Below, piece after piece: positions 19,195 through 42,539 of a stretch of DNA of 64,000 bases. The notes under the pieces are model-generated. The model saw only the letters and a list, made by a program, of their open reading frames with translations, was not told the origin of the DNA and searched no databases. The stretch lies in the IMG/VR virus record IMGVR_UViG_3300045988_131126. The stretch is one strand, 5' to 3'. The first letter of the stretch is position 1. Each line of letters opens with the position of its first letter. Made by a program: the position numbers and the translations under genes. The stretch comes from a virus.

Positions 19195-21315
19195 TTAAAT
19201 ACTCATTATATTACTATATGGAATATTGTTGTTTCCGTTAGTCTGAATATTTACAGACTTAAGCGGGAAATTACCAATATTATCATTTATAATAGTTGTA
19301 TAATCAATAAACTCTACAACCCATTTAGGTACTGCTACATCTAACGGTATTGCTAATGATGTAAATTCATTACCTTTACTTGTAGCTTTTCCTTTAAAAA
19401 TACTTGTATCCTTTAATACGTTCTTTATCTTTTCGTATGTTTCTGGATAAGTATCTTTTATTTTTTCTACAGTTTCTTCATTTACAACTACTTTTACAAT
19501 ATCCATACTATTTCTAGCTGTTAAGTCAAATCCTTCAAGACCATCATCTTTAATATCATTCCATATAACCGCAGCTTTTATACCTTGTATACCCATAGGA
19601 TCATCATAATGATCCATAGATTTTACATTTACCGGTTTATAGAATTCTTTTTCTCCATTATTAAGAGATCTAAATATCTTTTTATCTAATATCGCTAATC
19701 TCTTTATAATTCTAACTTGATCTATTACATCTGTATCAAGTATCTCTTCATATAATATCTTAGATAAAGCTGACTGTATAGATTTATTTAAGGTTACCTT
19801 TCTAATTTGTAAACCTTTAATATCCATACTTTCTTCTTCTGGTACTTTATGACCTTCCTGAAGTTCCTGTTTAGATGCATAGTTCTTCATACCTTCTGTT
19901 AATAATGCTCTTTTCATAAGAAACTCATTTTTCATATAGATAAGACATTTTCTATCTTCTCCATAAGAATGATTAGCTTTAGTATATTCTACCATATAAT
20001 CATTTACCAAAGCACCTACTATATAAGCCATAATATTAACCAATGAATATCTTAAATTATCAGAACCAGTTTGCTTATTAGGATTTACCAATCTTTTTCT
20101 AATTACAATATCATCATTAATGAAATCATAATCTTCATAATCTTCTTCAATAGGTTTAGTTTCTCCTAATACTGGATTATCTATTTCATTTAAGATTTTG
20201 AATTTGTGACCTTTACATTTCTCAAGACCAAATCTGAACCAAGCTTCAAGACTAATAATAGCACTATCTGTATCAGAGATACCAGCAATATTTTTAATCA
20301 TATTATCGCATCTATCAACTTTATCCATATATTGATATTTAAAATATACAAACTCTTTTAAGATATCTACTAAAGTATCTATCTCTACTTTGATTTCTTT
20401 TGGTGGCTCGTTTGGATCCATAAATGGTTGATCTAATTTTTCCAATAAAATTAATAATGCATTCGTCATTGATGCATTATCCATGAACTCGTAAAGGTTA
20501 TTTTTGTAATACAGTCTATTTATATCTTCTTGATCAAGTCTATTAATAATATCCCATATGATCTGTAAATCCATTTCATCAGGTAACCATTTTATTAATC
20601 CTTGCTTATAATCACCTATAGTAAGTACAATTTTATTGAAACATTCTTCTTTAGAAATATTACGATCTAATATATCGCAGTCTCTATATCTTCTTTCTTT
20701 TCTTTCACTTACTACACTATCAATAAACCATACAACTTCTTCAAGAGAAGCAAATTTAACGTTATTAGATAGAAAGCTTTCGAAAAACATAGTTGCTGTA
20801 CTAATGAGTTCTCTACCTGTTGTAGTAATGGATTCTGCTACAAAGATATTATAAAACATTGCTTGACATTGACCAAGTACACCGTATATTCCATTACAGT
20901 CAATTTTATCAAGTAATTGCAATAGATTATATTTCACAAACATTTCAGATCCTTTTGGATACTTAAACATTTCTGCTTTATGAACACCTCGCATTTCCAT
21001 AAATCCTCTAATCATTTCTATTAAAGGATTAGGAACTGTTCCATGTCTCATAAACATTACTCCAGATGGAGTACATATTGGTTGCTGAGATGCTATATAA
21101 TTTGTAAACTCTGATAATAACATCTCATGTTCTTTCTTATTGTAGTTATTGACTATTTTACATTTAGTATCAACAAATCTTTTCTTTACAGAATAATCAA
21201 TAGCATCTTTTATCTCTTGATTATTTAGGCTTGGATATATTAAAGACATTACTGTATGCATTTGCTGCATATATCTCATAACGCCAGCCGAATTATCTAC
21301 TGCTGAATTAACCAT
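19195..21315 (-). CDS. family-B DNA polymerase, C-terminal fragment (fingers / palm motifs B and C / thumb)
   Basis: 706 aa. Motif B KIDCNGIYGVLGQ (Kx3NSxYG), motif C GISDTDSAII (about 20260-20280), KKRY-like GMKNYA. No exonuclease motifs and no motif A; those are in 40602..42539. Confidence 0.85.
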   Translation of the reverse strand: MVNSAVDNSAGVMRYMQQMHTVMSLIYPSLNNQEIKDAIDYSVKKRFVDTKCKIVNNYNKKEHEMLLSEFTNYIASQQPICTPSGVMFMRHGTVPNPLIEMIRGFMEMRGVHKAEMFKYPKGSEMFVKYNLLQLLDKIDCNGIYGVLGQCQAMFYNIFVAESITTTGRELISTATMFFESFLSNNVKFASLEEVVWFIDSVVSERKERRYRDCDILDRNISKEECFNKIVLTIGDYKQGLIKWLPDEMDLQIIWDIINRLDQEDINRLYYKNNLYEFMDNASMTNALLILLEKLDQPFMDPNEPPKEIKVEIDTLVDILKEFVYFKYQYMDKVDRCDNMIKNIAGISDTDSAIISLEAWFRFGLEKCKGHKFKILNEIDNPVLGETKPIEEDYEDYDFINDDIVIRKRLVNPNKQTGSDNLRYSLVNIMAYIVGALVNDYMVEYTKANHSYGEDRKCLIYMKNEFLMKRALLTEGMKNYASKQELQEGHKVPEEESMDIKGLQIRKVTLNKSIQSALSKILYEEILDTDVIDQVRIIKRLAILDKKIFRSLNNGEKEFYKPVNVKSMDHYDDPMGIQGIKAAVIWNDIKDDGLEGFDLTARNSMDIVKVVVNEETVEKIKDTYPETYEKIKNVLKDTSIFKGKATSKGNEFTSLAIPLDVAVPKWVVEFIDYTTIINDNIGNFPLKSVNIQTNGNNNIPYSNIMSI

Positions 21316-21475
21316 TTAAATATCTTCCTTTCTTTTAGAATTATTCTTATGTGTTCGCAAAGATAATATATCATTAAAACTAGTATAAGGTTAAAATAAG
21401 AACATATGTGTAAAAATGGCTTGTTAAAGTTATGATTCTAAAAATAAAGATTATGAATTTAAGGAGGACAATATC

Positions 21476-21946
21476 ATGTCATTATTTGATACAGGTTCTG
21501 AAAAGATTACTTTAGAAAATACATTTGATGAAGATCAGAAAGATTTAGTTATTGAAGCTCTTATTTATGACGAAGTTTCTCATCTTCCTCAAGAGAAAAT
21601 TGAAGAGTTCTGTAAACCGAATGGAGTTGGAGAAGAACTTGTTATGGAAGGTAAGATCTCTAAGAAAACTATTGTACGTCTTAATAGACAGGACGACCTT
21701 GCTAGACGTAAAAAGATTATGGCTCTTAATCTTGCTAAAGAAGCTAATGATCCATTATATGCTAAATCTGTTATGTTTCGCCAGAAACAGAAAGAATATG
21801 TAGCAAAGATTATGCAGAAATATGGAAATAAAGCTGAGAGACTTGCTAAGCAGGCTCAGCAGGAATTCTTACATCCTGCATCTGATAAGAAAGTTCTTCC
21901 AGCATCCTTTATGAAAGCTGGCGGAGCTGAACGTGTTGGCCAATAA
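21476..21946 (+). CDS. hypothetical protein, probably highly expressed
   Basis: 156 aa. TAAGGAGG RBS. Codon usage is noticeably G/C3-richer than neighbours (cgt, ctt, gct, ggt). Strong terminator. Confidence 0.75.
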   Translation: MSLFDTGSEKITLENTFDEDQKDLVIEALIYDEVSHLPQEKIEEFCKPNGVGEELVMEGKISKKTIVRLNRQDDLARRKKIMALNLAKEANDPLYAKSVMFRQKQKEYVAKIMQKYGNKAERLAKQAQQEFLHPASDKKVLPASFMKAGGAERVGQ

Positions 21947-22009
21947 TTAATATAAACATATAAGTAATTCTGATAAGTAAAATACCTTCAATAATAATCA
22001 ACGAAAGAT

Positions 22010-22055
22010 ATGAGAGTAAGTGGATTAATTTCCACTTACTCTCATTATTTGTTTT
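22010..22055 (+). terminator. rho-independent terminator
   Basis: atgagagtaagtgga-ttaatt-tccacttactctcat (15-bp stem) followed by tatttgtttt. Confidence 0.8.
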
Positions 22056-22149
22056 ATTGATATATTATAAAAATAATTAAGTTATAGGATTTTGAAAAAT
22101 ACATACAGTTCTACAACTTAATAAGTATAAATAGGGAGGATTAGAACTT

Positions 22150-24357
22150 ATGGACGAATTATTTAATGATCTTTTAAATCCGGAGCCATTTATATCAAAG
22201 ATTCAATCTCGATTTAATGAGATACAACCTTTGATAATTGATGATCTGACGCACTATGAAAATTATGGTGAATATGTACCGCTAGTTAATACTGGAGCGA
22301 TCAGTATTAACACTTCTAATTTGAGTAAAGAGAATATTGATTCTCATTTTACTTGGATTTATAATATCATTGCTGATGGCATTGAGCAGAAAAAAGTTCA
22401 TGATATGATAGTATATATTACATTTATGGATAATGTACAAATTAGATTATCTATATTTGATTATATGCTTAATCTTATTATGTGGAAACTACCTTTGCAA
22501 GCCGGAGATTCTTTAACAAGTAATTTCCTATTCTTTGATGATTGCATCACGCAGGATTCTATCAAAGATTATATTGATTTTAAATTCATTGATATTCACA
22601 GAAGAGATTTTAATAACTGTGATATGAATCAAATGATTGATGAGACAATATACAAATTTATGTATATTGATGACTTTGCTTATTATCTTATCAATACTAT
22701 CAATGAAAAAGATACTATTGATTTAATGAAGAAGTCCCAAGTAGCATGGGATACATTGCATTTTTCTACGGTACAATATCCGTTGGAAGACAAGAAAGAT
22801 GCTGCTATGGATATGACAAACAAATTAATTGCAGTAATAAAAGCACCTGATTCTGAGCATTGTTTAAGGGATTCGTTCAGAGCTAGAGAAGGTGTTAACC
22901 CAAAACAGTTCAGGGAAATGATTTGCAATATTGCAACTAAACCCGATGGTAATGGAAGTATCTTTAGTATCGACCTCGATACAAACTATATGCAAGAGGG
23001 TGTAGCAAAACCTGAATATTATACTATTGATAGTAGTGCAGCAAGACAAGCACAGATCTTAAATAAAGAGAATGTAGGACAATCTGGAGCATTTTCTAGA
23101 AAATTAAGATTAAATAATATGCACGCTAAAATTCATCCAAACCCAAAATACGTTTGTAATTCAAAAAGATTCTTGCCAATATTTATTAAAGATATGAAAG
23201 TATTAGTAAGATTCAAAAACAGATATTTCAGATTTAATCCAAAAGGAATGGAGTATAAAGTATCTCCACATCCAGAAAGAGATAATGTAAATCTTATAGG
23301 AAAGACTTTATATTTTAGATCTCCGGAAACATGTGCTTCACATGCTAGAGGAGAAGGGATTTGTTATAGATGCTATGGGGATTTGGCATATACGAATGCA
23401 GATATTAACCCAGGATGTATGGCATCAGAGTTATTGTCTTCTGTATTAACCCAGCGATTATTGTCTGCTAAGCACTTATTAGAGACAAATGTAAAAGCAT
23501 TAAACTGGGTTCCGGAATTCAAAGATATTTTTGCTGTAAACTGGAATATGATTATGATTATGGATGATTTCATTCCAAAGAAATGGAAACTTATTATATC
23601 ATCAGATGATATTTATCAGGAATCAGAATATGATGAGTTTGATTATAACTCATGCATAACTACTTTCAATGTAATGGATCCTGATGGAAATACCATTCTT
23701 ATCAAAACAGAGGATTTAGACAACTTATATATTTCTCCAGAGTTAAGAAAAGTAATGGATAATCAGAAACTTGTAGATGATCAGTATATAATCGATTTCT
23801 CTGATATTATGGGGATTCATTTATTTATGGTCAATATTACAAATAATGGATTATCTGCAACTCTTGAACGATGCAAAGCTACTCTTGATAAACAAGCTAT
23901 TATTAAAGAGTATAAAAATGATATCGGATTATTTACACAAGGATTTATCAATACTATTATTGAGGGTGGACTTGATACAGATGCAGTTCATTGTGAAGTA
24001 CTTATATCAAATCAGTTACGTAGAGTCACAGACGATTTAGGAGATTCTATGTTACAACCTGAGTGGGAATATCCAAATGAACCATACAAGATCGTAACTC
24101 TTGATACAGCGTTAAAAGAGAACCCAAGTATCACTACATCATTGAATTATCAGTATATACAGAAACAGTTATTCAAACCAATTACATTTAAGAAAAATAA
24201 ACCTGGTATGATGGATTTATTCTTTATGGAAAAACCACAAGAATATATGAATGTAGAATTGGATTATAACCCGAAATTCAAAGATGACGTTGATGATGCA
24301 ATTGATGGATTTATTAATCCTATTTATCACGTAGATGAAAATGGTAATAAATTATAA
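22150..24357 (+). CDS. multisubunit RNA polymerase beta-prime-like protein, C-terminal half
   Basis: 735 aa. SPETCASHARGEGICYRCYGDLAY (23331-23390) matches the beta-prime segment ..C....GvC..CYGrDLa. There is no NADFDGD segment, so this is only the C-terminal part. Ends DGFINPIYHVDENGNKL (NPIYH at 24316-24330). Confidence 0.65.
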   Translation: MDELFNDLLNPEPFISKIQSRFNEIQPLIIDDLTHYENYGEYVPLVNTGAISINTSNLSKENIDSHFTWIYNIIADGIEQKKVHDMIVYITFMDNVQIRLSIFDYMLNLIMWKLPLQAGDSLTSNFLFFDDCITQDSIKDYIDFKFIDIHRRDFNNCDMNQMIDETIYKFMYIDDFAYYLINTINEKDTIDLMKKSQVAWDTLHFSTVQYPLEDKKDAAMDMTNKLIAVIKAPDSEHCLRDSFRAREGVNPKQFREMICNIATKPDGNGSIFSIDLDTNYMQEGVAKPEYYTIDSSAARQAQILNKENVGQSGAFSRKLRLNNMHAKIHPNPKYVCNSKRFLPIFIKDMKVLVRFKNRYFRFNPKGMEYKVSPHPERDNVNLIGKTLYFRSPETCASHARGEGICYRCYGDLAYTNADINPGCMASELLSSVLTQRLLSAKHLLETNVKALNWVPEFKDIFAVNWNMIMIMDDFIPKKWKLIISSDDIYQESEYDEFDYNSCITTFNVMDPDGNTILIKTEDLDNLYISPELRKVMDNQKLVDDQYIIDFSDIMGIHLFMVNITNNGLSATLERCKATLDKQAIIKEYKNDIGLFTQGFINTIIEGGLDTDAVHCEVLISNQLRRVTDDLGDSMLQPEWEYPNEPYKIVTLDTALKENPSITTSLNYQYIQKQLFKPITFKKNKPGMMDLFFMEKPQEYMNVELDYNPKFKDDVDDAIDGFINPIYHVDENGNKL

Positions 24358-24366
24358 TTAAATATT

Positions 24367-24398
24367 GTCTCACTAGTATATCATACTAGTGAGACTTT
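24367..24398 (+). terminator. hairpin, weak terminator
   Basis: gtctcactagtat-atc-atactagtgagac (13-bp stem) followed only by ttt. Confidence 0.45.
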
Positions 24399-24422
24399 AA
24401 TCTAGAAAGGAGAATTTAATTT

Positions 24423-25442
24423 ATGAGCAACGTATCTATGTTTTTATTTAATGATGATGAGGAAATGAAACCTAAACCATCAGAAATTAAACGTTTACAG
24501 GAAGGTAGTGTGAAATGTATTGAAAAGAAGAAAGAACCATATGTAGAAGGAATGATCTTCGTATTACAAATGGATAGAGAGATTGATAAAGATAAGCATT
24601 GCATTATATCTCCAGGAGGATATGAGTTTAAATCCAGTAAAAGTGAAAAATCTTTACAGTTTGATTTCTTTGACTATGCAGGATATATAGATTCAAATGA
24701 TAAGACAAAGATATTATTTGAAACTGAAGTATTAGACAGACAGTCTTTTCCAGGAACTATAGATAAATTAAATAAATCATTTTGTGAAGATATAAACGAA
24801 ATTACAGAATTTTATGTTTATACTGGAGAAGATGAAGATCCAGAACTAAACTTATCTAAAATTATAGACATAAGTTTATTATTTACAGATGGTACTAAAA
24901 TTGATATCAAAGAAGAAGTTATAAATAAATACAACGAAAAGATTACTAAAACTAAAGAAAAGAAGAAGATGCCGATGATTAATAGATTATCGAGCATGTC
25001 TTTAACATTAAAATTTAAAAATCTTCCAGATGATATTATGTATAAATCTTTAAGTGAAAGTAAATCTATAACTATATTTGACATAATACAATTATCATCA
25101 TCAAGATTAGGAAAATCTGCAAAGTTTGCATTCTGTGGAGAGGTGGAAAATCATTTCTTCGAGCATGACAAATCCATATTAATAGAAAAGCAGAATTATT
25201 TGGATAATAGTGCATTCTATGATGACATAGATATACTTACAGAAGATTTTATCAAATCGGTTGATGTAATAAATTATATATCCTTCGATGATGTATTATT
25301 AATGCCGAATCTTCCGATACAGTCTATTCTTACAATTAAATATGAATTCGAAAATGGCGATGAATACTACGCAAATGATTATGTAATAGACGAGTTCAAT
25401 AGAAGAATTAAAGAAAATATGAACTTAATCCATATTAATTAA
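24423..25442 (+). CDS. hypothetical protein
   Basis: 339-aa ORF with GAAAGGAG RBS. Confidence 0.75.
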   Translation: MSNVSMFLFNDDEEMKPKPSEIKRLQEGSVKCIEKKKEPYVEGMIFVLQMDREIDKDKHCIISPGGYEFKSSKSEKSLQFDFFDYAGYIDSNDKTKILFETEVLDRQSFPGTIDKLNKSFCEDINEITEFYVYTGEDEDPELNLSKIIDISLLFTDGTKIDIKEEVINKYNEKITKTKEKKKMPMINRLSSMSLTLKFKNLPDDIMYKSLSESKSITIFDIIQLSSSRLGKSAKFAFCGEVENHFFEHDKSILIEKQNYLDNSAFYDDIDILTEDFIKSVDVINYISFDDVLLMPNLPIQSILTIKYEFENGDEYYANDYVIDEFNRRIKENMNLIHIN

Positions 25443-25461
25443 TAAAAGGAGAATGATTACA

Positions 25462-26106
25462 ATGAAAAGCAATGAAAATAAAGAAATTTGTAGCAAATGT
25501 AGAGGAATTTGTTGTAGAAACATGCCGGGACAATACGTCCCGGATGATCTCTTTGATCATGAAATGACGAAAGAAGAGTTGAAGAAATTTATATTAGAAG
25601 TTGGGAATATATCTATAGACTGCTGGGAGCCAGATGAAGAATCAGGTTACGAATCATATTATTATTTAAGACCAATGAGAAGAAAATTAACTCTTGAAGA
25701 AGCAAAGCAAAATGTAATAACGATAGACGAGAAGGATCCTGATAATTTATCATTAGAAGATAAAGAGAAAATAGCAGAAGTGTGGGCAAATATACTCAGT
25801 TATTCGATCAAGAATTTCAGAAATCAGGATCTTACGGTTGATTATGGATATAACGAAGTTGCACTAGTATGCTGTCATTTAACCGAAAATGGGTGTGATT
25901 TAAAGTTTGATAAAAGGCCTACCAATTGCAAAGAATTAATCCCAGCAAGAGATACGGAATGCTATATAGAAGGATTATCCGAAAATGATTCAGCGAAATT
26001 ATATTATGCTAAGAAATGGGAGAAATATAATGATATGCTGAATGATATAGCAAATGAAATTGAATTCGGAAAAGACTATAAAGAATATATTGGAGAGGAA
26101 GAATAA
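25462..26106 (+). CDS. Cys-rich protein, YkgJ-like CxxCxxCC zinc/iron-chelating domain
   Basis: ATG 25462 lies 10 nt after AAGGAG (ATG 25453 is only 1 nt after it). CSKCRGICCRN ... CCHLTENGCDLKFDKRPTNCKELIP resembles the CxxCxxCC ... C.iy..RP..Cr.yP family. Assigned from memory. Confidence 0.45.
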   Translation: MKSNENKEICSKCRGICCRNMPGQYVPDDLFDHEMTKEELKKFILEVGNISIDCWEPDEESGYESYYYLRPMRRKLTLEEAKQNVITIDEKDPDNLSLEDKEKIAEVWANILSYSIKNFRNQDLTVDYGYNEVALVCCHLTENGCDLKFDKRPTNCKELIPARDTECYIEGLSENDSAKLYYAKKWEKYNDMLNDIANEIEFGKDYKEYIGEEE

Positions 26107-26107
26107 T

Positions 26108-26455
26108 ATGATACAGGTATTTCCTAAAGATGAAAATGTAAATATGAATCTAGAAGTTCCTACATTTGTAAATACTAGGAAAAATGATTACATATTATCT
26201 AAGAAATATACTAAAGAAAAGGAGGGTCTTACAATGAAAAGACTCAATAAGAAAATCGAAACTATAAACAATATTATTCTGGCAGTTGCCATTGCCGGAA
26301 TAATATTCTGGCTCCTTGGAGATGGCCTTTTTGGTCATCTCGGAGGACTTATAGTTACTATTATAGTAACTATAAGCATTTCCTTATTGACAGTAAGGAA
26401 ACTTCAATTGAAGAATAAGAAACTTCAATTGAAGTTAATGAAAGCAAGACGATAA
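26108..26455 (+). CDS. small membrane protein (two predicted TM helices), holin-like topology
   Basis: ATG 26108 follows GGAGAGG. A stronger internal start at ATG 26234 follows AAGGAGGG. TM segments IILAVAIAGIIFWLLG and LGGLIVTIIVTISISLLTV. Charged C-terminus. Confidence 0.5.
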   Translation: MIQVFPKDENVNMNLEVPTFVNTRKNDYILSKKYTKEKEGLTMKRLNKKIETINNIILAVAIAGIIFWLLGDGLFGHLGGLIVTIIVTISISLLTVRKLQLKNKKLQLKLMKARR

Positions 26456-26472
26456 GTCTTGCTTTCTTTTTT
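26440..26472 (+). terminator. rho-independent terminator
   Basis: gaaagcaagac-gataa-gtcttgctttc followed by tttttt. The stem includes the stop codon. Confidence 0.75.
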
Positions 26473-26481
26473 CTACGATAC
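26467..26481 (+). repeat. exact 15-mer TTTTTTCTACGATAC, copy 2 of 4
   Basis: See 18751. Lies directly on the terminator T-tract. Confidence 0.8.
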
Positions 26482-26574
26482 TCGTAAAATCGTTTTTTTT
26501 TGAGTGTATATTATTATAGTGATAAATAATAATAAATCCTACTTTTAAAATAAGTAGGTAGAAAGAGGTATAAT
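26482..26574 (+). promoter_or_regulatory. repeated promoter-leader module, copy C
   Basis: TTGAGT, N17 ending TGA, TAAATA, then leader hairpin cctactt/aagtagg (26538-26558), then tagaaagagg, then ATG 26575. Confidence 0.5.
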
Positions 26575-26802
26575 ATGTGGAATTTATTTGGCATAGATGA
26601 TTTTTTAACAGACCAATTTTCTGAGGAGGCTTCTGCATTATTAGAAGACCCTCAGGAAGGGGATTTAGAAAAACTAAAAGATATTTTTAAGAAATATTCC
26701 TGCAACGCTATGTGGTGGGAGATAAAACCGGTGTATGACCGGTATTATTCTGAGATTGAATATAAGCTCAGAAAAATAAAAAATAAATTAGAAGAAAGCT
26801 AG
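26575..26802 (+). CDS. small acidic hypothetical protein (cassette cargo)
   Basis: 75 aa. Conserved RBS. Own promoter module and terminator. Confidence 0.6.
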   Translation: MWNLFGIDDFLTDQFSEEASALLEDPQEGDLEKLKDIFKKYSCNAMWWEIKPVYDRYYSEIEYKLRKIKNKLEES

Positions 26803-26819
26803 TAATGCTAGCTTTCTTC
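26791..26819 (+). terminator. terminator hairpin
   Basis: gaagaaagctag-taatg-ctagctttcttc (12-bp stem containing the stop codon). The T-tract is weak. Confidence 0.5.
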
Positions 26820-26854
26820 TAATTATACTAATTTACGTATACTCTTTATTTTTT
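26819..26854 (+). repeat. 36-bp direct repeat, copy 1 (ctaattatactaatttacgtatactctttatttttt)
   Basis: 34/36 identical to 27091-27126. The two copies bracket an ORF-free cassette. Confidence 0.8.
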
Positions 26855-26863
26855 CTACGATAC
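26849..26863 (+). repeat. exact 15-mer TTTTTTCTACGATAC, copy 3 of 4
   Basis: See 18751. About 30 nt downstream of the 26791-26819 terminator hairpin, on the T-tract that ends the 36-bp direct repeat. Confidence 0.8.
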
Positions 26864-26880
26864 TATGGCAAAATTGTATT

Positions 26881-26930
26881 TGTAATATCTTTATTTTTTA
26901 ATTATATATTATTATAGTGATAAGAATAGA
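26881..26930 (+). promoter_or_regulatory. repeated promoter box, copy D (no RBS or ORF downstream)
   Basis: tgtaatatctttatttttt, then TTAATT, N17 ending TGA, TAAGAA. Same architecture as copies B and E, but followed by hairpins instead of the tagaaagagg RBS. Confidence 0.45.
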
Positions 26931-27090
26931 AAATCTATATCTTATCCGGTAGTATGTCCGAAACATACATAAAAGGAAAGAGCACTTCATAGTGCTCATT
27001 ATATTACTTTACTTTATTAAGGCGGGCTTAGGTTGCGATCTTTTTGGTCGTAACCTAGGCTCAAAATCAAATAATAATATTTTATTTTTT
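26931..27090 (+). ncRNA. candidate small RNA expressed from promoter box D
   Basis: No ORF or RBS. Three hairpins: 26952-26968, 26980-26997, and a 14-bp stem at 27026-27060 with three G.U pairs that pair only in the plus-strand transcript. Ends in ttttatttttt (27080-27090). Confidence 0.3.
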
Positions 27091-27126
27091 CTAATTATAC
27101 CAATTTACATATACTCTTTATTTTTT
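27091..27126 (+). repeat. 36-bp direct repeat, copy 2
   Basis: ctaattataccaatttacatatactctttatttttt. See 26819. Confidence 0.8.
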
Positions 27127-27169
27127 GTCTAAAACAACACTGTAATATTGATTGAGGAGATGATGTAAA

Positions 27170-34504: not shown

Positions 34505-34578
34505 GTATAAACATATCAGTAAATTACATTTAATAAAACTATAAATGTGGTATATAATATGTTAAGGAGGATTCATTA

Positions 34579-36435
34579 ATGAGGCCCGATACAATATTTG
34601 AGTATATAGATCAGTCAAATATAACAAAGACTACCGAAACTCTTGTTACTGCTCCTTACTATCTTTGCTGCTCTTCTGCTGAAAGAGGTCCAGAAGATAT
34701 TAGAGAAGTTGTAGGAACAGATTTTTACAATTTATACGGTAATCATATCTCATTTGTTAAACATGGTCAGCCGCTTGTTCAGGCTGCGCATATTATTGAT
34801 AATGGTGGTAGATTAATTTTCAAGAGACTTGTTGCTGAAGATGCGGCTCTTGCCAATCTTACTGTCATTGCTACAGTTACTAAAAAAGAGGTCGAGAAAA
34901 CTAATGCTGCTGGAAAACCTCTTTATATTGATCCATCTACAAATCAGGAGAGCGAAACTGATGGTGGTGGATGGGCTAAAGCTACAAAGAACGTAGCTAG
35001 TATTAAATACGGAGTTGTTACTGTACCTTCTATGAAAACTATTACTGATGTAGTAGCTCATGTTCAGTTACAGTATAAAGAAGAAACTGACGTATTCCCT
35101 CTGTTCACAGTAACAGATAATGGTAGAGGAAAATCTACTAAGAGATTTAATATTCAGCCAGATTATCAGTTAAGTAAACAGAATTCTTTCGAATTCTATA
35201 CATTTAATGTAATTGCTGATGCTGAAACAAATGCTGAGTATACAAGATTTTCTATTGATCCTAATATTATTTATCTTAAGACAAGTATGTCTCTGACAGA
35301 AAGTTCTAAAGATCTTACACAGCTTGACGCTTATCAGTATGAAGAAGGATCTAATAAATTCATCAAAGCTGTTAGTGAAGCTACTGGAGTAGATGAAGAT
35401 ACACTTAAATCTATTGACATACTGTTTGGATGTGATAGAGCAGGTAAAGCTCTTGACTATATTTCAGTAGATCTTACTAAGTCAGAAGATGAAGCTGAAA
35501 ACGGATATGATCTTGCCGACGCTACAGGTATGATGATCATGTCTGGTGATAATGGTGAGTTTGGAGATAAACCATTCGGAACAGGTGCTTGGACTAAAGA
35601 AGCAGTAAAATTCTTCTCTGGAGAATTTGATGATTCTGTATTTAACCCTAACCAGGTTAATATCGATGCAGTATTCGATGCTAACTATCCATCTGAAGTA
35701 AAGAAAGCTATTCTTGATCTTGCAGAGTTCAGACAGGACTTCTTCTACTTTAGAGATTTTGGTCTTGATAAATATACATATGATCAGTTTAAGATGGCTG
35801 CTAAAGAATTTGACCATTCTAAATTTGCAGCTTCTTACATTACAACATATGATGTTCTGGATCCATATTCCAGAAAGCAGATCAATGTAACTCTGATGTA
35901 TTCTTTAGCAGTTAAAATGATTAATCATTTTAACCTTAGAAGAAATGCACCGTGCGCTGGTATTCAGTACGGATTTACTTTTGATGAAGCTATTAAAGGT
36001 ACAGTTAACTTCTGTCCTAAATTTACACCAAAGGTTGACCAGAAAACAGAGCTTATGGACTTAGGATTAAACTATTGTGGATATATCAATAATCAGTTGG
36101 TACTTGAAACAACTAATACATCTCAGGATCCATATAGCCAGCTCTCTTATATTAATAATATCCTTGCTGTACAGCAGATTATTCATAGAGTTAGAGAGGT
36201 TTGCCCGATTAATAGATATACATTTATTACATCTGATGACCTTGAAACTTATAAGAAAGCTGTTAATAATGCAATTATGCAGTATAAAGAAAACTTCGAT
36301 ACTCTCGAATTTGTTTATGTTGCAGACCCAATTATGAAAGCCAATAAGATCTTTAATGCATCTATTAAAGTTTCATTCAAAGACTTCGTTCAGACTGAAA
36401 TCTTTAAGATTTATGCATTACCGACCCAATCTTGA
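34579..36435 (+). CDS. putative contractile tail sheath protein
   Basis: 618 aa. The N-terminus ..SSAERGPEDIREVVGTDFYNLYGN..HGQPLVQAAHIIDNGGRLIFKRLV parallels the T4 gp18-type N-terminal pattern (..GP...v.s..dF...fG.....a..fl..Gg.l.v.Rv). The C-terminal LNYCGYINNQLVLETTNT is like iN.i....g.vvwG.rT. High-expression codon usage. Pattern-based only. Confidence 0.5.
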   Translation: MRPDTIFEYIDQSNITKTTETLVTAPYYLCCSSAERGPEDIREVVGTDFYNLYGNHISFVKHGQPLVQAAHIIDNGGRLIFKRLVAEDAALANLTVIATVTKKEVEKTNAAGKPLYIDPSTNQESETDGGGWAKATKNVASIKYGVVTVPSMKTITDVVAHVQLQYKEETDVFPLFTVTDNGRGKSTKRFNIQPDYQLSKQNSFEFYTFNVIADAETNAEYTRFSIDPNIIYLKTSMSLTESSKDLTQLDAYQYEEGSNKFIKAVSEATGVDEDTLKSIDILFGCDRAGKALDYISVDLTKSEDEAENGYDLADATGMMIMSGDNGEFGDKPFGTGAWTKEAVKFFSGEFDDSVFNPNQVNIDAVFDANYPSEVKKAILDLAEFRQDFFYFRDFGLDKYTYDQFKMAAKEFDHSKFAASYITTYDVLDPYSRKQINVTLMYSLAVKMINHFNLRRNAPCAGIQYGFTFDEAIKGTVNFCPKFTPKVDQKTELMDLGLNYCGYINNQLVLETTNTSQDPYSQLSYINNILAVQQIIHRVREVCPINRYTFITSDDLETYKKAVNNAIMQYKENFDTLEFVYVADPIMKANKIFNASIKVSFKDFVQTEIFKIYALPTQS

Positions 36436-36452
36436 TATAGGAGGTAAGTATA

Positions 36453-37394
36453 ATGGCTAACTTACAAAGTACATTTAATACTTATAGCAAACGTCCTAGA
36501 TCAGTAGCAGAATATACAATGATGAGAGGTGTAACTGACTTTACAAATGCTGCACAGTTCAATGCATATTTGAAGGGTTATCAGCATCTTGTAGTCATTT
36601 CTGTTCCTGAATATCTTAAAGTATTAGGATCTAATGGAAACGCAGATGCTCAGAAACTTCTGGATCTGTTCTGTTATATTCTTGAATACGAGTTTAAAGG
36701 ACTTGATGGTATTGAAGATATTACTGTTGATAATATCGAATTTACTGATGGTATTTCTACAATGAACTCCATGGGTAAAGTTACTCAGCAGTCTGCATCT
36801 GAAATATCTATGAGCTTTACTGAAAAATCTGGTTCAGTTATCACAAAATTCATTGATATGTATATTAGAGGTGTAAGAGATCCTCGTACACAGGCTAAGA
36901 CATATCATGGATTAATCAAAAATGGTATCCTTGCAGCTGGATTTGAAAATGAAGTATTCAACCTTATGTATATCGTAACTGATGAAACTATGCTTGGTCT
37001 TGAAAAAGCATATCTGTTATGTAATGCATGGCCAAATAAAGTTCCATCCAGTATCTACAATGGTACTAAGGGTGAAATTGAAAAAGTTGATATCGAAGTT
37101 ACTATGCAGTGCTTCGTTATCGACGGTGAAGAAGTAGATGCTAGAGCGCTTAAGATGCTTGCATATCTTAATGAAGCTGATGCTGTTAAGAATATGATGG
37201 CAGTTAATGACGGATTTAGTCAGAATGCTAGGGATAGCGTTAACGGATTTAACAATCATTCTGAAAATCAGATCGAACTTGATTCTGGTAAATTCAAATA
37301 TTCTGTATTTGATACAGTTAATTCAAACTTCGGTATTGATGTCGCAAGTACTACATCTTCCGGATCAAATAACAACAACGCTAATGGTGGCTGA
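36453..37394 (+). CDS. putative tail tube protein
   Basis: 313 aa. Immediately follows the putative sheath (the usual sheath-tube order; jumbo myoviruses have large tube proteins). High-expression codon usage. No specific motif recognised. Confidence 0.35.
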   Translation: MANLQSTFNTYSKRPRSVAEYTMMRGVTDFTNAAQFNAYLKGYQHLVVISVPEYLKVLGSNGNADAQKLLDLFCYILEYEFKGLDGIEDITVDNIEFTDGISTMNSMGKVTQQSASEISMSFTEKSGSVITKFIDMYIRGVRDPRTQAKTYHGLIKNGILAAGFENEVFNLMYIVTDETMLGLEKAYLLCNAWPNKVPSSIYNGTKGEIEKVDIEVTMQCFVIDGEEVDARALKMLAYLNEADAVKNMMAVNDGFSQNARDSVNGFNNHSENQIELDSGKFKYSVFDTVNSNFGIDVASTTSSGSNNNNANGG

Positions 37395-37407
37395 TAAAAA
37401 AATAAAT

Positions 37408-37441
37408 ATATGGATGTATACCAAATGGTATACATCCATAT
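37408..37441. terminator. bidirectional terminator between convergent genes
   Basis: atatggatgtatacc-aaat-ggtatacatccatat (15-bp perfect stem), flanked by A-run and T-run. Confidence 0.75.
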
Positions 37442-37446
37442 TTCTT

Positions 37447-39783
37447 TTAATATCCTCCGTATGAATCTCCGACTGCATTTCCGTTAGCAGAAGCTGCAGT
37501 TTTACGTTTATTATATTCAAACTCTGTTTGTCTCTTAAGATTATCTATCTCATCAGCTTTTACATAAGTACTCAATCTTTGTTTCATCATTAACTTCATA
37601 AAGATTGCTTTCTTTTCATTATTAGCTTGATCATTTTCATTATCATATTCGTAATTAGCTATGGTTTCTGTATTAGCACGTACAGTTTCAAGGATATTAT
37701 TAAGATTTGTAATAGATAAGAATAATGGTTGAGGTAATACACATTTAATGTATACTCTTTCTCCATATTCTGCAGCATATAAAGCTGTTATTATTCTACT
37801 GAAGTAATATTCAAGCTTCTCTTGTCTTAGTATACAGTGCCTTAAGAATTTGATATTAGACATTGTAATTTGCGTAGCAAAGTCTGTACTATATCTTGCA
37901 TTTACTAATTCAAGAGGAATACCAGTAGAATTTACACACTGTTCTTCAAATCTATCTAATAATTCTGTATGAGGTTGAATATCTTGACCATTCATTACTT
38001 CCATTTGTACAGGAGCATCTCCAGATTGTCCAACAGGAATAACAAAGTCATTATATCTACCTATAATATTCAATATAGAATTCATATTCTCTACTTGACG
38101 TATATTAAAATTAGATATTTTAATCTGATTAATAACGTTCATAAGAGTCTGAGCTATATTGGTTTCGGTATTCTGTTTTACATAGTATACCCTTCTATCT
38201 TGAGATCTTGTTAAAGATGCTATAGTATCATTAATAGAAATACAACAATACATTTTAGCCGCTATTAAGCAAGATAATATGTCAGATATACCTCTATGTG
38301 TATCAGGATCTTCTTCAAATTTAATATGAGTTACATCTTCTTCTGGTAAGAATGTAACTTTGATATTAGAAGTTGAAGCTCCATTGAAAAGATCATTATA
38401 TTTTAATACTGCATATATTTCACCCGCTAAATCTGGATTAGTATTGATAAATTGCGTATCAATCTGACTAGCTATATTAGATGCTACATATTTTAATAAT
38501 TGGTTTTTATCTTGTTCTGCTTTAAAATCTTGAGAATTTTTAACAGCGTTTCTATCATACATTGTAGAACCATAACCAGAAGAATCATACTGGTTACTAT
38601 ATAAAATAGAATTATCTGTATTTGGATCAAATTCAAAGTAATAATATCCTAAACATATTTCGTCAATATATAATAATACAACGTTTTCAGGCTTTAATGT
38701 TTTTAATACACAACCCGGTGTTTTTACATTATATGAATCGACACTATTATTTATACCAGATTTAATCAAACCGTCTCTAGCACTTTGATCAAAGTCTTTA
38801 GTTGGTAATTCTAATTCATCTGATATAGTTTTATTCAATTTAGTTTTCTTATCGCTAGTATTATTTTTTAATGAATTTGGTAAAGCATCTTCCATTAATG
38901 CCATTTCGTCTATATTATCGCATACAGAGCCAACTTCATTAACTATACTCATAGATTCTCTTAATCTAGTCTGATCATTAACAGCAGACTCAAGAACTCC
39001 AGTATAATTATATGATACATTGATATTATATGTATTTGTAGTAATCTGATTATTTAATTTTAAGTCTTTTGTAGTAATTCCATCTATTCTGATTACTGAT
39101 TCATGTAATCCTCCTGGATTACTAACTGACATGGTTTTAGATTTATCTCTTAAAAGTTTAGCCAAAGCTTTCTTATATGGTGGATGATAAATAAATTCTT
39201 CACCATATTTCATTGTACTATAAGTGGCTTTATCGAATTTTTCTGCTAATTTATATTTCTTTTTAATATTTTCAATACGAGTATTAAATACAACTCTATC
39301 CTCATCATATGTAGATGATACAGTAGCATTAACAAAGTCTTTAGAGAAATTATCTGATGATAATATGGCGTCTCTTTTAGCTTTTAATGCTTCATCAAGC
39401 TTAGGCATATATTTACATACTGTATCTATTTCATTATACAGATCTTTTATATTCTTATTCTGTAAATATATGCCTAATATATTATTTGTAACACCCTCAT
39501 CTCCAAAAGTGTCTTCTATTTTCTTCTGAACTTGTCTATCATTAAGATTCTTAGACAATAATGCTCTTGAATAAAGTTTAGTAAGATTTGGAGCATCTAT
39601 ATCATTATTTCTATTCATGATAGCATCAATATTATCTTCAACTCTGCCAGATACATCGTCCAATTCTTTTTTGGAGGTTCTGGATGAGTTATATGTCTGC
39701 CTGTAGTGGTCGTTCATTCGGTTATTCAATATTTTAGACAGATCGACAATTTTAGAAAAATTAAATCTGTTTCTATTTGCCAT
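37447..39783 (-). CDS. large hypothetical virion-associated protein (possibly portal)
   Basis: 778-aa ORF next to the structural block. The size fits a jumbo-phage portal, but I recognise no diagnostic motif. The start is preceded by an SD-sequestering hairpin. Confidence 0.3.
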   Translation of the reverse strand: MANRNRFNFSKIVDLSKILNNRMNDHYRQTYNSSRTSKKELDDVSGRVEDNIDAIMNRNNDIDAPNLTKLYSRALLSKNLNDRQVQKKIEDTFGDEGVTNNILGIYLQNKNIKDLYNEIDTVCKYMPKLDEALKAKRDAILSSDNFSKDFVNATVSSTYDEDRVVFNTRIENIKKKYKLAEKFDKATYSTMKYGEEFIYHPPYKKALAKLLRDKSKTMSVSNPGGLHESVIRIDGITTKDLKLNNQITTNTYNINVSYNYTGVLESAVNDQTRLRESMSIVNEVGSVCDNIDEMALMEDALPNSLKNNTSDKKTKLNKTISDELELPTKDFDQSARDGLIKSGINNSVDSYNVKTPGCVLKTLKPENVVLLYIDEICLGYYYFEFDPNTDNSILYSNQYDSSGYGSTMYDRNAVKNSQDFKAEQDKNQLLKYVASNIASQIDTQFINTNPDLAGEIYAVLKYNDLFNGASTSNIKVTFLPEEDVTHIKFEEDPDTHRGISDILSCLIAAKMYCCISINDTIASLTRSQDRRVYYVKQNTETNIAQTLMNVINQIKISNFNIRQVENMNSILNIIGRYNDFVIPVGQSGDAPVQMEVMNGQDIQPHTELLDRFEEQCVNSTGIPLELVNARYSTDFATQITMSNIKFLRHCILRQEKLEYYFSRIITALYAAEYGERVYIKCVLPQPLFLSITNLNNILETVRANTETIANYEYDNENDQANNEKKAIFMKLMMKQRLSTYVKADEIDNLKRQTEFEYNKRKTAASANGNAVGDSYGGY

Positions 39784-39784
39784 T

Positions 39785-39859
39785 GGATGGAAACCTCCCT
39801 TACCACGAATTATCTTATTGTTCCAGCGATAATTCTATATGGTAAGGGAGACTCCATCC
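39785..39859 (-). promoter_or_regulatory. 17-bp hairpin sequestering the Shine-Dalgarno sequence of 37447..39783
   Basis: Plus-strand arms ggatgga-aac-ctcccttacc (39785-39804) and ggtaagggag-ac-tccatcc (39841-39859) give 7+10 bp with a small internal loop and a 36-nt apical loop. In the minus-strand mRNA the 3' arm contains AAGGGAGG, and the ATG starts 1 nt after the stem. Confidence 0.55.
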
Positions 39860-39860
39860 T

Positions 39861-40589
39861 TTATTCTGACAAACTTCTATATCTTAATAAGCATTTAATC
39901 ATTAAATCTTTTGGTTTACTTTTTATAATTTCTACTATAGAAACGTTGCTTCCATCATGTAAATCATATAAAGTTATTGATACTTTATCTTTAGCTGTGA
40001 TTGGATACATGCCGCCATATAATGTAATGATATTATTATCTAAATTAACCATTTCCATTCCATCTCCAGCTTTCATAGATAAACTGTTCGTAATATCCGC
40101 ATTCTGCCTTAAATCATCCAAATGATAGATTAATGTTGGATCATCAAGACTATATGGATTTGAGCCATGTCCTAATAAACGAGCGTTACGAGCTAATTTA
40201 TATAATTTATCACCCACAAACGATTTACCTACCCATAACTTGGAATAACCCATTTGGTCGTACACATTACAATTGCTTATATATCCAAATTCATTTTCTT
40301 TCATCAAAGCTATGATTTCATTTTTATTAAAATATAACGTGTAATCTGAAACTGCATTTCCTTTTTCATCAGACCACGTCCAATGATTAATATCCCCATC
40401 ATTTAATGCGAAATCTATATATTCTATATACGTTACAGATGAAAAATCATCATCTGTTCCGTATACGTTTACTCGTACTATATCTAAAAATTTTTCTACT
40501 GACACAGCAAACCATTTTTTCTTTGTATACTTTACATATTCAAAAATCTTTAAAAAGTTTTCAAGTGATAATCCTACATATTTTCCCAT
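39861..40589 (-). CDS. hypothetical protein immediately downstream of the polymerase N-fragment
   Basis: 242 aa with AAGGAG RBS. The start lies 12 nt after the PolB-N stop. Contains GSNPYSLDDPTLIYHLDD (LIYH at 40112-40123). Confidence 0.75.
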   Translation of the reverse strand: MGKYVGLSLENFLKIFEYVKYTKKKWFAVSVEKFLDIVRVNVYGTDDDFSSVTYIEYIDFALNDGDINHWTWSDEKGNAVSDYTLYFNKNEIIALMKENEFGYISNCNVYDQMGYSKLWVGKSFVGDKLYKLARNARLLGHGSNPYSLDDPTLIYHLDDLRQNADITNSLSMKAGDGMEMVNLDNNIITLYGGMYPITAKDKVSITLYDLHDGSNVSIVEIIKSKPKDLMIKCLLRYRSLSE

Positions 40590-40601
40590 GGTTTAATCTC
40601 C

Positions 40602-42539
40602 TTATTTTATTTTCTTTAAATATGGTTTAAAATCTTTAGACTTATCAGAATCTCTTATAATAGGTCTAAATGTATTTTCTGGATCATGATAAATTGGATT
40701 ATAAAATCCACTTTCTATATCAGGATAATGATAAATTGGATTATAAAATCCATCACTATTTATATCAAGCATTGGATTTATTGGGAACCTTACTTTAGTA
40801 AAGAATTCATCAAAATCTTCCATCATCTCTCTTATAGATGCTAAATGGAACCAACGTTTACCAACTTCAAGGTAGTTTCCGTTATTAAAGTCCATAAGGA
40901 ATCTACCACCTCTATAATAAAATTCATATCTAAATGGATTTTCATTTTCATATACTTGTGTAGGTATTTCTAATCTACCAACTTGAGTATTTGGAGCCAT
41001 ATTATTTTCTCTTGCAATACTTGGATACAGAGACTTATAATCAAAATCTACTAGATTATCCATAATATTTAAAATCTCTCCATTTTGCTTTAATTTAGAA
41101 TAATCGCTATTATGCTTAGGATTACCTACTAAAGCTCCAGGGAACTTAACGTTACTATTATTTCTATTAACGTTATTACCAATAATAAATCCCTGATTAT
41201 AGAATTCTTTTGCTCCTCTATTTGTAAGATAAACAGTCTGTCTGTGACCTTTATCATATCTTGTATTATTCATTACACACTTACCAAAGATATAATCTAT
41301 ATCACCGGTTTTAACTTCAATACATTTCTGAACAATTGTATCGACGATATTATAGAATACAAATGTCTTATAATCTAAATATGGTAATTTAGAGATATCA
41401 TGTGTAATATGAGAATAATCTAATTTATTTACACCTGCTATAACTTCACCGATATCATCCAATTTAAATGATTTAAATGCTGACTGACCTTTACGTCTTG
41501 AAGCAAATTGAATCATTTGGTCCAATAATACTGTATACATAGAAAACGTATATCTATCGCATCTCTCTGCATATTCATTTCTATGTCTTTCATCTATATA
41601 ATACTTAGCAACTTTCTTTTCAAAAGCTGGATGAGACATGATCTCTGCTGGATCATATCCTAAGTTAATTATTCTCTCATATATATACGGAATATCGAAT
41701 GCCATGTTCCATGCCAATAAGAAGTCTGGTTCATATTTATTAATAAATTGAAATAATGAATATATTAATTGGATCTCTTCATCAAAGAATGCAAGACGTA
41801 CATCCAAATTATCTACTCCATATTTTTTTGCTTTTTCTGGTCCACCTACAGTTGTTATTAAAAACTCTCTTAATTCTTTAAATAAATTTGGATCGGTTTT
41901 TGCTTCATGTTCAAATTTTTCTATTAACGGATTATTTGGGTTTCTTAATAAAAATACTTTTACAAGATTTTCTTGTTCTATTATACATGATACTGCATTT
42001 ATAGGACACTCTCCCATCTCTGGAAAGTCTCCTTTCATATCTATAGTATCAGCCTCAATATCGAAGAATGCCTTCGTTACAGGACAAATATCATTTTTAT
42101 AATATAAATCAAACATGAATTTATATCTGTCTTCTATATTAGAATCACTAAATAATATATTAGGTAATTCGTGTAATAATTGATTATTTCTAAATTGACC
42201 AGTTCTTAAATTCTCATAAAAGAATTCTTCGTTACCTGTATTCTCAGCAATAGATTTTAATAAATCTCTATATTTACAAGTAATCTTATCTACTTTCTCT
42301 TTCTCTACAATAAACAAATTATGATCTGTTGTATATTCAGGTTTTAATTTATAATAATCGAAATCTGGCTTCATAATATACCTATGACCTTTTTTACCAG
42401 TTTCTAAATCTTTATATATCATAAGCATATAATCTGGATCATATTTTCCATCCTCTCTCTTTTGAGGATAATGATATCTATTATCTAATAAAGTAATATT
42501 ACTATTAAAAGGATATCCTTTAATTAATTCATCGCTCAT
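40602..42539 (-). CDS. family-B DNA polymerase, N-terminal fragment (3'-5' exonuclease + palm motif A)
   Basis: 645 aa. ExoI FFDIEAD, ExoII LLAWNMAFDIPYI, ExoIII YNIVDTIV, motif A VDFDYKSLYPSI (about 41021-41048). Ends in a tail with two GFYNPIYH copies (40686-40700 and 40728-40742). Confidence 0.85.
   Translation of the reverse strand: MSDELIKGYPFNSNITLLDNRYHYPQKREDGKYDPDYMLMIYKDLETGKKGHRYIMKPDFDYYKLKPEYTTDHNLFIVEKEKVDKITCKYRDLLKSIAENTGNEEFFYENLRTGQFRNNQLLHELPNILFSDSNIEDRYKFMFDLYYKNDICPVTKAFFDIEADTIDMKGDFPEMGECPINAVSCIIEQENLVKVFLLRNPNNPLIEKFEHEAKTDPNLFKELREFLITTVGGPEKAKKYGVDNLDVRLAFFDEEIQLIYSLFQFINKYEPDFLLAWNMAFDIPYIYERIINLGYDPAEIMSHPAFEKKVAKYYIDERHRNEYAERCDRYTFSMYTVLLDQMIQFASRRKGQSAFKSFKLDDIGEVIAGVNKLDYSHITHDISKLPYLDYKTFVFYNIVDTIVQKCIEVKTGDIDYIFGKCVMNNTRYDKGHRQTVYLTNRGAKEFYNQGFIIGNNVNRNNSNVKFPGALVGNPKHNSDYSKLKQNGEILNIMDNLVDFDYKSLYPSIARENNMAPNTQVGRLEIPTQVYENENPFRYEFYYRGGRFLMDFNNGNYLEVGKRWFHLASIREMMEDFDEFFTKVRFPINPMLDINSDGFYNPIYHYPDIESGFYNPIYHDPENTFRPIIRDSDKSKDFKPYLKKIK
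40686..40752 (-). repeat. in-frame tandem duplication (25-nt exact repeat, 42-nt period) encoding GFYNPIYH twice
   Basis: atgataaattggattataaaatcca at 40686-40710 and 40728-40752, identical. Confidence 0.9.

Follow-up and report, generated by a model that had tools for sequence, protein, structure and literature searches.

Family-B DNA polymerases (PolBs) encoded by two genes are already on record, and the closest described cases are those of the jumbo phages of the AR9 and phiKZ type. For phiKZ, Thomas et al. (2016) use the term 'split subunit DNA polymerase' (PMC5105663), the split having been described in 2012 according to a citing sentence in that paper. In the AR9 transcriptome, Lavysh et al. 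(2017) counted both halves of the enzyme, along with further replication genes, as 'continuously expressed' (PMC5312081), and Iyer et al. (2021) described for group-1 jumbo phages a divergent PolB without a fused exonuclease, the latter being 'encoded elsewhere' (PMC7824862). Here, we analyse a stretch of 64,000 nucleotides from a virus (IMG/VR record IMGVR_UViG_3300045988_131126; hereafter the window), in which two open reading frames (ORFs) very probably encode the two subunits of one replicative PolB of an uncultivated jumbo myophage. The split PolB found here is the already known AR9/phiKZ-type arrangement, and not a new phenomenon.

Outside this group, three natural PolB split sites have been reported: the fingertip in T4-like phages, the palm after motif C in M. 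thermautotrophicus, and the N/palm boundary in RM378 (PMC3061061). The 43A and 43B genes of the T4-like phages are separated by 2 bp to 3 kb, and their split has been tied to insertions or to a seg endonuclease, while the two halves of M. thermautotrophicus lie 85 kb apart (PMC3061061). It has been demonstrated that the 43A and 43B products of Aeromonas phage 25 co-purify and are active (PMC2988022), and that an engineered split of the Pfu polymerase reconstitutes full activity (PMC3061061). M. thermautotrophicus, RM378 and the split Pfu enzyme are thus precedents for a PolB made of two chains. The PolBs of T4-like phages and those of the phiKZ-like group make up sister clades (PMC4889955).

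The first of the two ORFs, at 40602-42539 on the minus strand (645 residues), is referred to here as the N-half. It encodes the N-terminal domain and the 3'-5' exonuclease, then the palm's first segment, which bears motif A, and after these a family-specific helical module and a tail of variable sequence. Its translation contains Exo I as FFDIEAD (D160/E162), Exo II as AWNMAFDIPY (N278/D282) and Exo III as YNIVD (Y396/D400), in agreement with the PolB exonuclease signatures DxE, Nx2-3F/YD and Yx3D. Motif A follows as DFDYKSLYPS (residues 498-507; 41019-41048, minus strand) and bears one of the two catalytic aspartates. The second ORF, the C-half, at 19195-21315 on the minus strand (706 residues), encodes a family-specific N-terminal domain, the fingers, the palm with motif C and the KxY motif, and the thumb. 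Both finger helices (residues 97-116 and 124-148 within 97-148; 20872-21027) are found in this half, including motif B as KIDCNGIYG (residues 137-145; 20881-20907), and they are followed by motif C as SDTDS, with the second catalytic aspartate pair (residues 347-351; 20263-20277), and by the KxY region GMKNYAS (K477 and Y479; 19873-19893), all of them on the minus strand. Therefore, the four polymerase motifs A (DxxSLYPS), B (KxxxNSxYG), C (DTDS) and KxY are present once each, spread over two polypeptides, with motif A in the N-half and the other three in the C-half, none duplicated and none missing. Both ORFs are open throughout, without internal stops, and Pfam detects DNA_pol_B_exo1 in the N-half (3.6e-11) and both DNA_pol_B (9.8e-12) and PF20286, 'Divergent Family B DNA polymerase' (1.1e-33), in the C-half.

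The two genes lie on the same strand in N-to-C order, and the gap between them (21316-40601) measures 19,286 bp. According to PHROGs, Pfam and tblastn searches against AR9, this block contains on the plus strand a virion protein, a gene for a protein similar to the β' subunit of the RNA polymerase (RNAP) at 22150-24357, the terminase large subunit at 27170-29386, structural genes, the tail sheath at 34579-36435 and the tail tube at 36453-37394. On the minus strand, it contains a homologue of AR9 gp127 (37447-39783), for whose counterpart in MarsHill the annotation reads portal vertex protein, and an ORF of 242 residues. The initial annotation of this DNA had proposed a single PolB broken between motifs A and B. 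It placed the three exonuclease motifs and motif A in one ORF, and motifs B, C and KxY in another about 19.3 kb away, both on the minus strand in N-to-C order, and it put mostly plus-strand genes for RNAP β', terminase, sheath and tube between them. Translation, Pfam and conservation bear out the assignment of motifs in both halves; PHROGs and Pfam bear out the gene content of the gap. The proposal of one broken enzyme is upheld by profile alignments, predicted structures, conservation, selection, synteny and natural fusions.

Profile alignments indicate that the two halves are complementary. The N-half profile (71 sequences) aligns with residues 98-444 of RB69 gp43 and with residues 396-423 of an archaeal PolB, passing through motif A and the next helix. 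The C-half profile (67 sequences), from its position 94-97 on, aligns with residues 623-696 of the poxvirus polymerase, with Pol alpha and with residues 452-546 of a Thermococcus-type PolB, taking in both finger helices, motif B and what follows. Because the first profile ends at residue 423 and the second one starts at 452, the break corresponds roughly to residues 424-451 of a Thermococcus-type PolB, past the post-motif-A helix and ahead of the strand by which the fingers are entered. This being so, the break in the window, judged by alignment, is a fourth position, distinct from the three natural sites mentioned above.

Models built with AlphaFold2 (AF2) and compared by Foldseek, each half being taken separately, agree with this assignment, a kind of check that the initial annotation had suggested. 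The N-half model has a predicted local distance difference test (pLDDT) score of 83, and is confident at residues 10-460 and in a three-helix module at residues 543-583 (helices 543-551, 556-564 and 569-583, pLDDT 80-87). Its best match in the PDB is RB69 gp43 (E 2e-15). When this half is modelled alone, pLDDT falls below 50 around motif A (residues 493-520), presumably because this strand is expected to need the other half of the palm sheet, and the tail also scores low. The C-half was modelled inside a fused construct, in which the residue number is that of the C-half plus 206. Its pLDDT is mostly 75-97, all 50 of the top PDB matches listed are PolBs (T4, 9e5y, E 9e-5), and the search against BFVD retrieves the AR9 catalytic subunit (A0A172JI59, E 2e-39, TM score 0.81). 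Between them, the separate models include the N-terminal, exonuclease, palm, fingers and thumb domains of the PolB fold.

On each side of the break, there is a structured module that found no partner when the profiles were aligned to solved PolBs. In the N-half, this is the helical module of residues 543-583 (40791-40913, minus strand), which holds an invariant R562-W563 and ends at the conserved split site. In the C-half, it is the N-terminal domain of residues 1-77 (21085-21315, minus strand), which starts at the split site, is made of helices and strands with pLDDT of about 77-89, and aligned to no canonical PolB in profile or fold searches. These two modules are the likely candidates for the interface between the subunits. 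A string resembling motif A, SLIYPS, appears at residues 23-28 of the C-half and was rejected as a second copy of this motif; it lacks the aspartate, conserves only YP and lies in a predicted helix.

A tblastn search of 50,697 phage records identified the closest cultured relatives, at 28-33% identity, in the Bacillus phages AR9, PBS1, Goe21 and BpSp, and in the Staphylococcus phages S6, MarsHill, PALS_2 and others, as well as in Yersinia phiR1-37, Listeria LPJP1 and the Fusobacterium JD-Fnp phages. The N-half is 29-33% identical to AR9 gp131 and to its homologues in Staphylococcus and Yersinia phages. In every cultured relative listed, the two halves match separate places, one place per half. 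The same two-gene architecture is thus found in gp131 and gp151 of AR9/PBS1 (Takahashivirus), and in the pairs of S6, MarsHill, PALS_2, BpSp, LPJP1 and the JD-Fnp phages. GenBank entries name these halves 'DNA polymerase exonuclease subunit' or 'DNA polymerase', and 'DNA polymerase catalytic subunit'. The distance between the halves is about 15 kb in AR9 and PBS1, 19-21 kb in S6, PALS_2 and MarsHill, and about 26-38 kb across JD-Fnp1 and LPJP1, the halves of JD-Fnp1 being about 26 kb apart on opposite strands. In phiR1-37, they are divergent and separated by 1.7 kb, unlike those of the window. The premise of the initial annotation that the halves of split PolBs are usually close together therefore fails here, since spacings range from about 15 to about 38 kb in most of these relatives and reach 85 kb in M. 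thermautotrophicus.

The break point is identical in the window phage, AR9, MarsHill and phiR1-37 (g170 and g167/g164), and thus shared across phages of Bacillus, Staphylococcus and Yersinia. In the alignments of these four phages, the N-halves extend about 75 residues beyond motif A to a conserved helix (R/K)W..L..., after which the split falls, and the C-halves open with a domain of 80-95 residues, which is followed by a PI.T..G strand and the fingers. The helical module of the N-half is kept in AR9, MarsHill and phiR1-37, and the N-terminal domain of the C-half is kept in AR9 and phiR1-37. Compared with AR9, the clade of the window has two additions: its N-half bears a tail of 60 residues with repeats, and its C-half gains about 40 residues inserted behind motif C. 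Moreover, in AR9 and MarsHill it is the C-half gene that is upstream, while in the window the N-half gene is upstream. The halves of MarsHill, PALS_2 and PB50 are interrupted by introns or homing endonucleases, whereas those of the window carry neither. The MarsHill C-half (gene 108, L005 5062-7182) is annotated with an intron, and the N-halves of PALS_2 and PB50 are interrupted by HNH homing endonucleases. The C-half of phiR1-37 is broken once more, into g167 and g164 (L004 5850-8173), with two tiny ORFs between them.

More distant comparisons delimit the type. The domain PF20286 is common to the C-half and the phiKZ-related phages, but the phiKZ-like Pseudomonas phages match only residues 341-698 of the C-half, at about 24% identity, which denotes a distant relation. 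The T4-like gp43A/gp43B pairs (Aeromonas phages 25, 44RR, 31 and 65; Acinetobacter phage 133) likewise place a replicative family-B polymerase on two cistrons. However, their split lies between the finger helices and their cistrons are adjacent, whereas in the window the break precedes the fingers, both finger helices stay in the C-half, the genes are 19,286 bp apart and no mobile element accompanies them, so that the definition of the T4-like bicistronic form given in PMC3061061 does not apply. On the other hand, the two genes, the homologous split position, the AR9-like fold and PF20286 domain of the C-half and the genome context all agree with the AR9/phiKZ type. This context is that of a jumbo myophage, with the β'-like RNAP gene, an RNAP β gene (Rpb2_6, 57868-60180), sheath, tube and terminase, and the contig ena:ERZ27262376:k119_88226, of 273,686 bp, on which the N-half is matched exactly. 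Downstream, a gene similar to NAD-dependent DNA ligases (54256-56628, minus strand) and the β-like RNAP piece with Rpb2 domain 6, which is also on the minus strand, are consistent with the gene set of AR9-type phages. Genes for tRNAs were not detected within the 64 kb. The window is an uncultivated, distant member of the group that comprises AR9/PBS1, S6 and phiR1-37.

Comparison of gene order with related phages, which had also been suggested as a check, revealed that each half keeps its own AR9 neighbourhood. One block of microsynteny with AR9 runs through structural genes, sheath, tube, the gp127 homologue, the N-half and SbcC. The other one comprises the C-half, a virion protein and the C-terminal part of RNAP β'. 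The order of these two blocks relative to each other differs between the window and AR9. The co-occurrence of split genes for a multisubunit RNAP is a further likeness to AR9-type phages. The arrangement of the window recurs in a relative that is about 55% identical in the N-half and whose halves are separated by about 16 kb. The sequence of this relative, JAQUZN010000001.1 (246,077 bp; assembly GCA_028691315.1; loci L002 and L003), is labelled 'MAG: Candidatus Izemoplasmatales bacterium' and encodes both halves together with a tail tube, a sheath and terminase-sized and RNAP-sized genes in the order of the window. This is most likely the genome of a jumbo phage that was placed in a bacterial bin, and its label is perhaps a clue to the host.

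Natural fusions of the two halves came to light when 1.84 billion representatives were searched exhaustively with a profile of the C-half alignment, which yielded 2393 matches. Among the 150 best ones, two are approximately double in length: P0321 (1224 residues; L007 18-3692) and P0388 (1276 residues; L006 10001-13831). In both, the first 570-610 residues are homologous to the N-half of the window (identity 33% and 30%, respectively; E about 1e-70), and a C-half homologue follows colinearly and in the same frame. In both fusions, the helical module is kept and directly precedes a linker of 15-25 residues, located exactly where the genes of the window, AR9 and phiR1-37 break, and the N-terminal domain of the C-half is kept after it. 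By the usual logic of gene fusions, this is evidence that the products of the split genes act as one enzyme and that the break occupies a permissive linker. The nearest neighbours of the C-terminal parts of these fusions are split-length proteins (45% and 37% identity), and P0321 and P0388 are not each other's nearest relatives. Since similarity ranks, used here in place of a rooted tree, nest each of them among split forms, they appear to be independent secondary fusions. One of the metagenomic contigs bearing a fusion, of 68 kb, also encodes a Cpn60 chaperonin.

In the alignments of 71 N-half and 67 C-half homologues, all the residues of the exonuclease and polymerase motifs are invariant. 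In particular, D498, D500, Y505 and P506 are found in 71 of 71 N-halves, and K137, N141, Y144, G145, S347-S351, K477 and Y479 in 67 of 67 C-halves. The ratio of nonsynonymous to synonymous substitution rates (dN/dS, or ω) relative to close relatives is 0.068 for the N-half (0.056 for its core and 0.146 for its tail, the latter on 60 codons) and 0.098 for the C-half. Because of these values and of the retention of every catalytic residue, both halves are intact genes under strong purifying selection and not pseudogenes; decay into pseudogenes, which the initial annotation had named among the outcomes that would overturn its proposal, is excluded by them. Metagenomic homologues amount to 1631 clusters for the N-half and 1415 for the C-half at 90% identity, and many of them sit on contigs of 240-330 kb. 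The 120 best homologues of each half are all half-sized, with lengths of 629-679 residues (N-half) and 701-734 residues (C-half).

Nothing at the break points to a mobile element. Nanoarchaeum is known for a PolB whose halves are joined by a split intein. In the window, no intein, HNH, GIY-YIG or LAGLIDADG domains were detected by Pfam at E up to 1 in either half, nor in the flanking and intervening ORFs scanned, and a Rfam scan of the 64 kb revealed no intron and no other RNA family. These scans agree with the initial annotation, in which no such signature had been noticed next to either half, and an origin of the split in an intein, an intron or a homing endonuclease was consequently rejected. 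The absence of a Hint or intein match separates the pair from the Nanoarchaeum type. The termini of the halves align with the plain linker of the fused homologues, and, on inspection, the tail has neither cysteine nor an intein block. Each ORF has its own ATG, its own stop codon and its own AGAAAGG-type ribosome-binding-like site. The split is old and inherited, and not the recent product of a mobile element.

The gene structure, homology, conservation, selection, synteny and fused homologues described above are direct observations, and they support a model in which each half gene would be transcribed and translated on its own. From the N-subunit would come the N-terminal domain, the exonuclease for proofreading and the strand of the palm on which motif A sits (catalytic D498). 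The C-subunit would contribute the fingers, which hold motif B, the hairpin of the palm in which motif C lies (D348/D350), KxY and the thumb. Both subunits would then associate non-covalently into a heterodimer, and the break would sit in a surface linker flanked on each side by a family-specific structured module. In such a complex, the polymerase active site would be composite, with D498 from one chain and D348/D350 from the other, so that neither subunit would be expected to polymerise alone.

Several points weigh against this model. We infer the physical heterodimer, its composite active site and the co-regulation of the two genes, and the papers that we found report no biochemical test of an AR9- or phiKZ-type polymerase. 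When the fused chain was modelled with AF2 (a fused row for the window plus 66 C-half homologues), the motif A segment, which had no homologue rows, scored a pLDDT below 35 and was left unplaced. The wording 'encoded elsewhere' used by Iyer et al. is compatible with a looser association of the exonuclease (PMC7824862). The analysis spans 64 kb of a genome of about 274 kb, and another polymerase may be encoded elsewhere in it. In addition, the promoter-like element discussed below, on which co-regulation partly depends, has two exact copies against an estimate of about 0.7 expected by chance, and 11 copies with one mismatch against 14 expected, and thus shows no enrichment.

Some of these points would also fit a different organisation, in which the C-half is a self-sufficient polymerase and the N-half a stand-alone exonuclease, like the bacterial epsilon subunit, which would be recruited loosely at most and would retain motif A as a relic. 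The description of the group-1 polymerase without a fused 3'-5' exonuclease (PMC7824862) is in its favour, and so is the fact that in phiKZ-like Pseudomonas phages the match is confined to the C-terminal part of the C-half, from which it follows that architectures vary in the wider group. A relic, however, is difficult to reconcile with a motif A whose D498, D500, Y505 and P506 are invariant in 71 N-halves with a core ω of 0.056, while no motif A was found in the C-half, whose profile alignments begin at the fingers and whose SLIYPS string lies in a helix and lacks the aspartate. The exact colinear order of the fused homologues also argues against two separate enzymes, which we consider improbable. 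The two-subunit polymerase remains the preferred reading. In another rival to it, the halves would be joined into a single chain after expression, either through protein trans-splicing at a split intein or through the trans-splicing of RNAs that carry intron halves. Relatives do carry introns and homing endonucleases within polymerase and RNAP genes. Nevertheless, Pfam at E up to 1 shows polymerase domains only in both halves, no Rfam intron match exists in the window, and each ORF possesses its own start, ribosome-binding-like site and stop. Beyond the shared helix, the N-half continues into a variable tail of 60 residues without cysteine that is missing in AR9, MarsHill and phiR1-37. On the other side, the N-terminus of the C-half aligns residue for residue with the fused homologues, so an intein-sized extra segment is absent. 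Joining of the halves is accordingly very improbable.

The fact that the window is a quarter of the genome, with room for another polymerase in the rest, would be in line with both ORFs being decaying remnants of a disrupted enzyme, replication being carried out by another phage-encoded polymerase or by that of the host. This is scarcely credible for genes with ω of 0.07 and 0.10 and invariant catalytic residues, whose half-sized architecture is kept in the best 120 homologues of each half and whose cultured relatives listed, including AR9 and PBS1, hold one place matching each of them. Besides, no other DNA polymerase was detected by Pfam and/or PHROGs among 32 ORFs scanned in the window, which include all the listed ORFs of at least 242 residues with the exception of 12898-13641 (247 residues), 49488-50390 (300 residues) and 62835-63998 (387 residues).

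With regard to the expression of the two subunits, a promoter-like 10-mer, TTATACTAGT, is located 67 nucleotides upstream of the ATG of the N-half (42607-42616, minus strand), where it is followed by the ribosome-binding-like site AGAAAGG, and 63 nucleotides upstream of the ATG of the C-half (21379-21388, minus strand), where it is followed by the ribosome-binding-like site AGAAAGGAAG. No further exact copy exists in the 64 kb. The idea that TTATACTAGT serves the window as a promoter motif in general was rejected, given that copies with one mismatch are not enriched (11 versus 14). The relative with about 55% identity in the N-half has a 12-mer of its own, TTATCTATATGT, common to both upstream regions and unique to them within 44 kb (L002 9895-9906 and L003 9910-9921). 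In AR9, an early promoter is annotated before each half, and both genes belong to one temporal class. The AR9 early-promoter sequences (AAATATATATTAT-like) were also tried as a match for the upstream elements of the window, and they bear no resemblance to them. This pattern fits co-regulation of both halves from separate promoters of one type, and TTATACTAGT is a possible candidate for a common promoter class, to be taken as a lead only.

The N-half ends in a tail of 60 residues (586-645; 40605-40784, minus strand) with two to three short internal repeats, which is absent from the N-halves of AR9, MarsHill and phiR1-37 and from the fused forms. The initial annotation had referred to a 'motif-bearing tail' after motif A. 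In fact, this segment lies outside the PolB fold, as a variable, clade-specific extension. The repeats in the window read GFYNPIYHYP, GFYNPIYHDP and FRPIIRD. The best internal pair of 7-mers is significant in 33 of the 71 tails, versus three of 71 and none of 71 in control segments of the core, and a period of 12-14 residues is preferred. The repeats are alike within a protein and differ between phages, a pattern that looks like concerted evolution. No tandem repeat was found beneath them at the DNA level. The ω of about 0.15 over these 60 codons points to constraint.

It is conceivable, although rather unlikely, that this tail is a dedicated tether, either as short strands that would dock on the C-subunit and keep the composite active site together, or as a multivalent handle for an oligomeric partner of the replisome. 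In that case, it would replace the covalent linker still present in the rare fused relatives, and it would represent a novel means of assembling a replicative polymerase from split parts. The C-half, for its part, has an insertion of about 40 residues directly after motif C in comparison with AR9 and phiR1-37 (residues ~352-405; 20100-20260, minus strand), which is partly modelled with pLDDT below 50 (residues 584-592 and 618-621 of the fused model).

The finding is modestly important. It extends the two-gene PolB of AR9/phiKZ-type phages to a very large, uncultivated clade of low GC content, with more than 1,400 clusters per half, and it identifies the break as one fixed and ancient site, set apart from the three natural PolB split sites reported elsewhere. 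The many split relatives, taken with the rare fused ones, constitute a natural matched set for studying the assembly of a replicative polymerase with its catalytic aspartates on different chains. The same set also allows one to ask if splitting alters fidelity or nucleotide choice, a question of interest given that the DNA replicated by several cultured relatives contains uracil. As for annotation, the halves are better named exonuclease/motif-A subunit and catalytic subunit of a single enzyme than 'partial' or 'pseudo' polymerases.

Other genes in the window deserve mention. The terminase large subunit has a listed TTG start, preceded by a stretch of 367 bp (26803-27169) without a called ORF, and about 220 of its residues (226-446), between the N- and C-terminal terminase-family matches, remain unmatched. 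An ORF at 7151-11737 on the plus strand (1528 residues) encodes a SNF2-family helicase, in which known domains account for the first ~630 residues only. Another one, at 3407-5731 on the plus strand (774 residues), combines an N-terminal zinc-finger-like match with a GNAT acetyltransferase and a NUDIX hydrolase, a fusion that is unusual for a phage. Finally, a few genes away from the C-half, the ORF at 16146-16853 on the plus strand matches MazF/PemK-like toxins (PHROG 1936, E 8e-6), and a weak PemK_toxin match is found in the same neighbourhood of a relative (L009 13630-14400).

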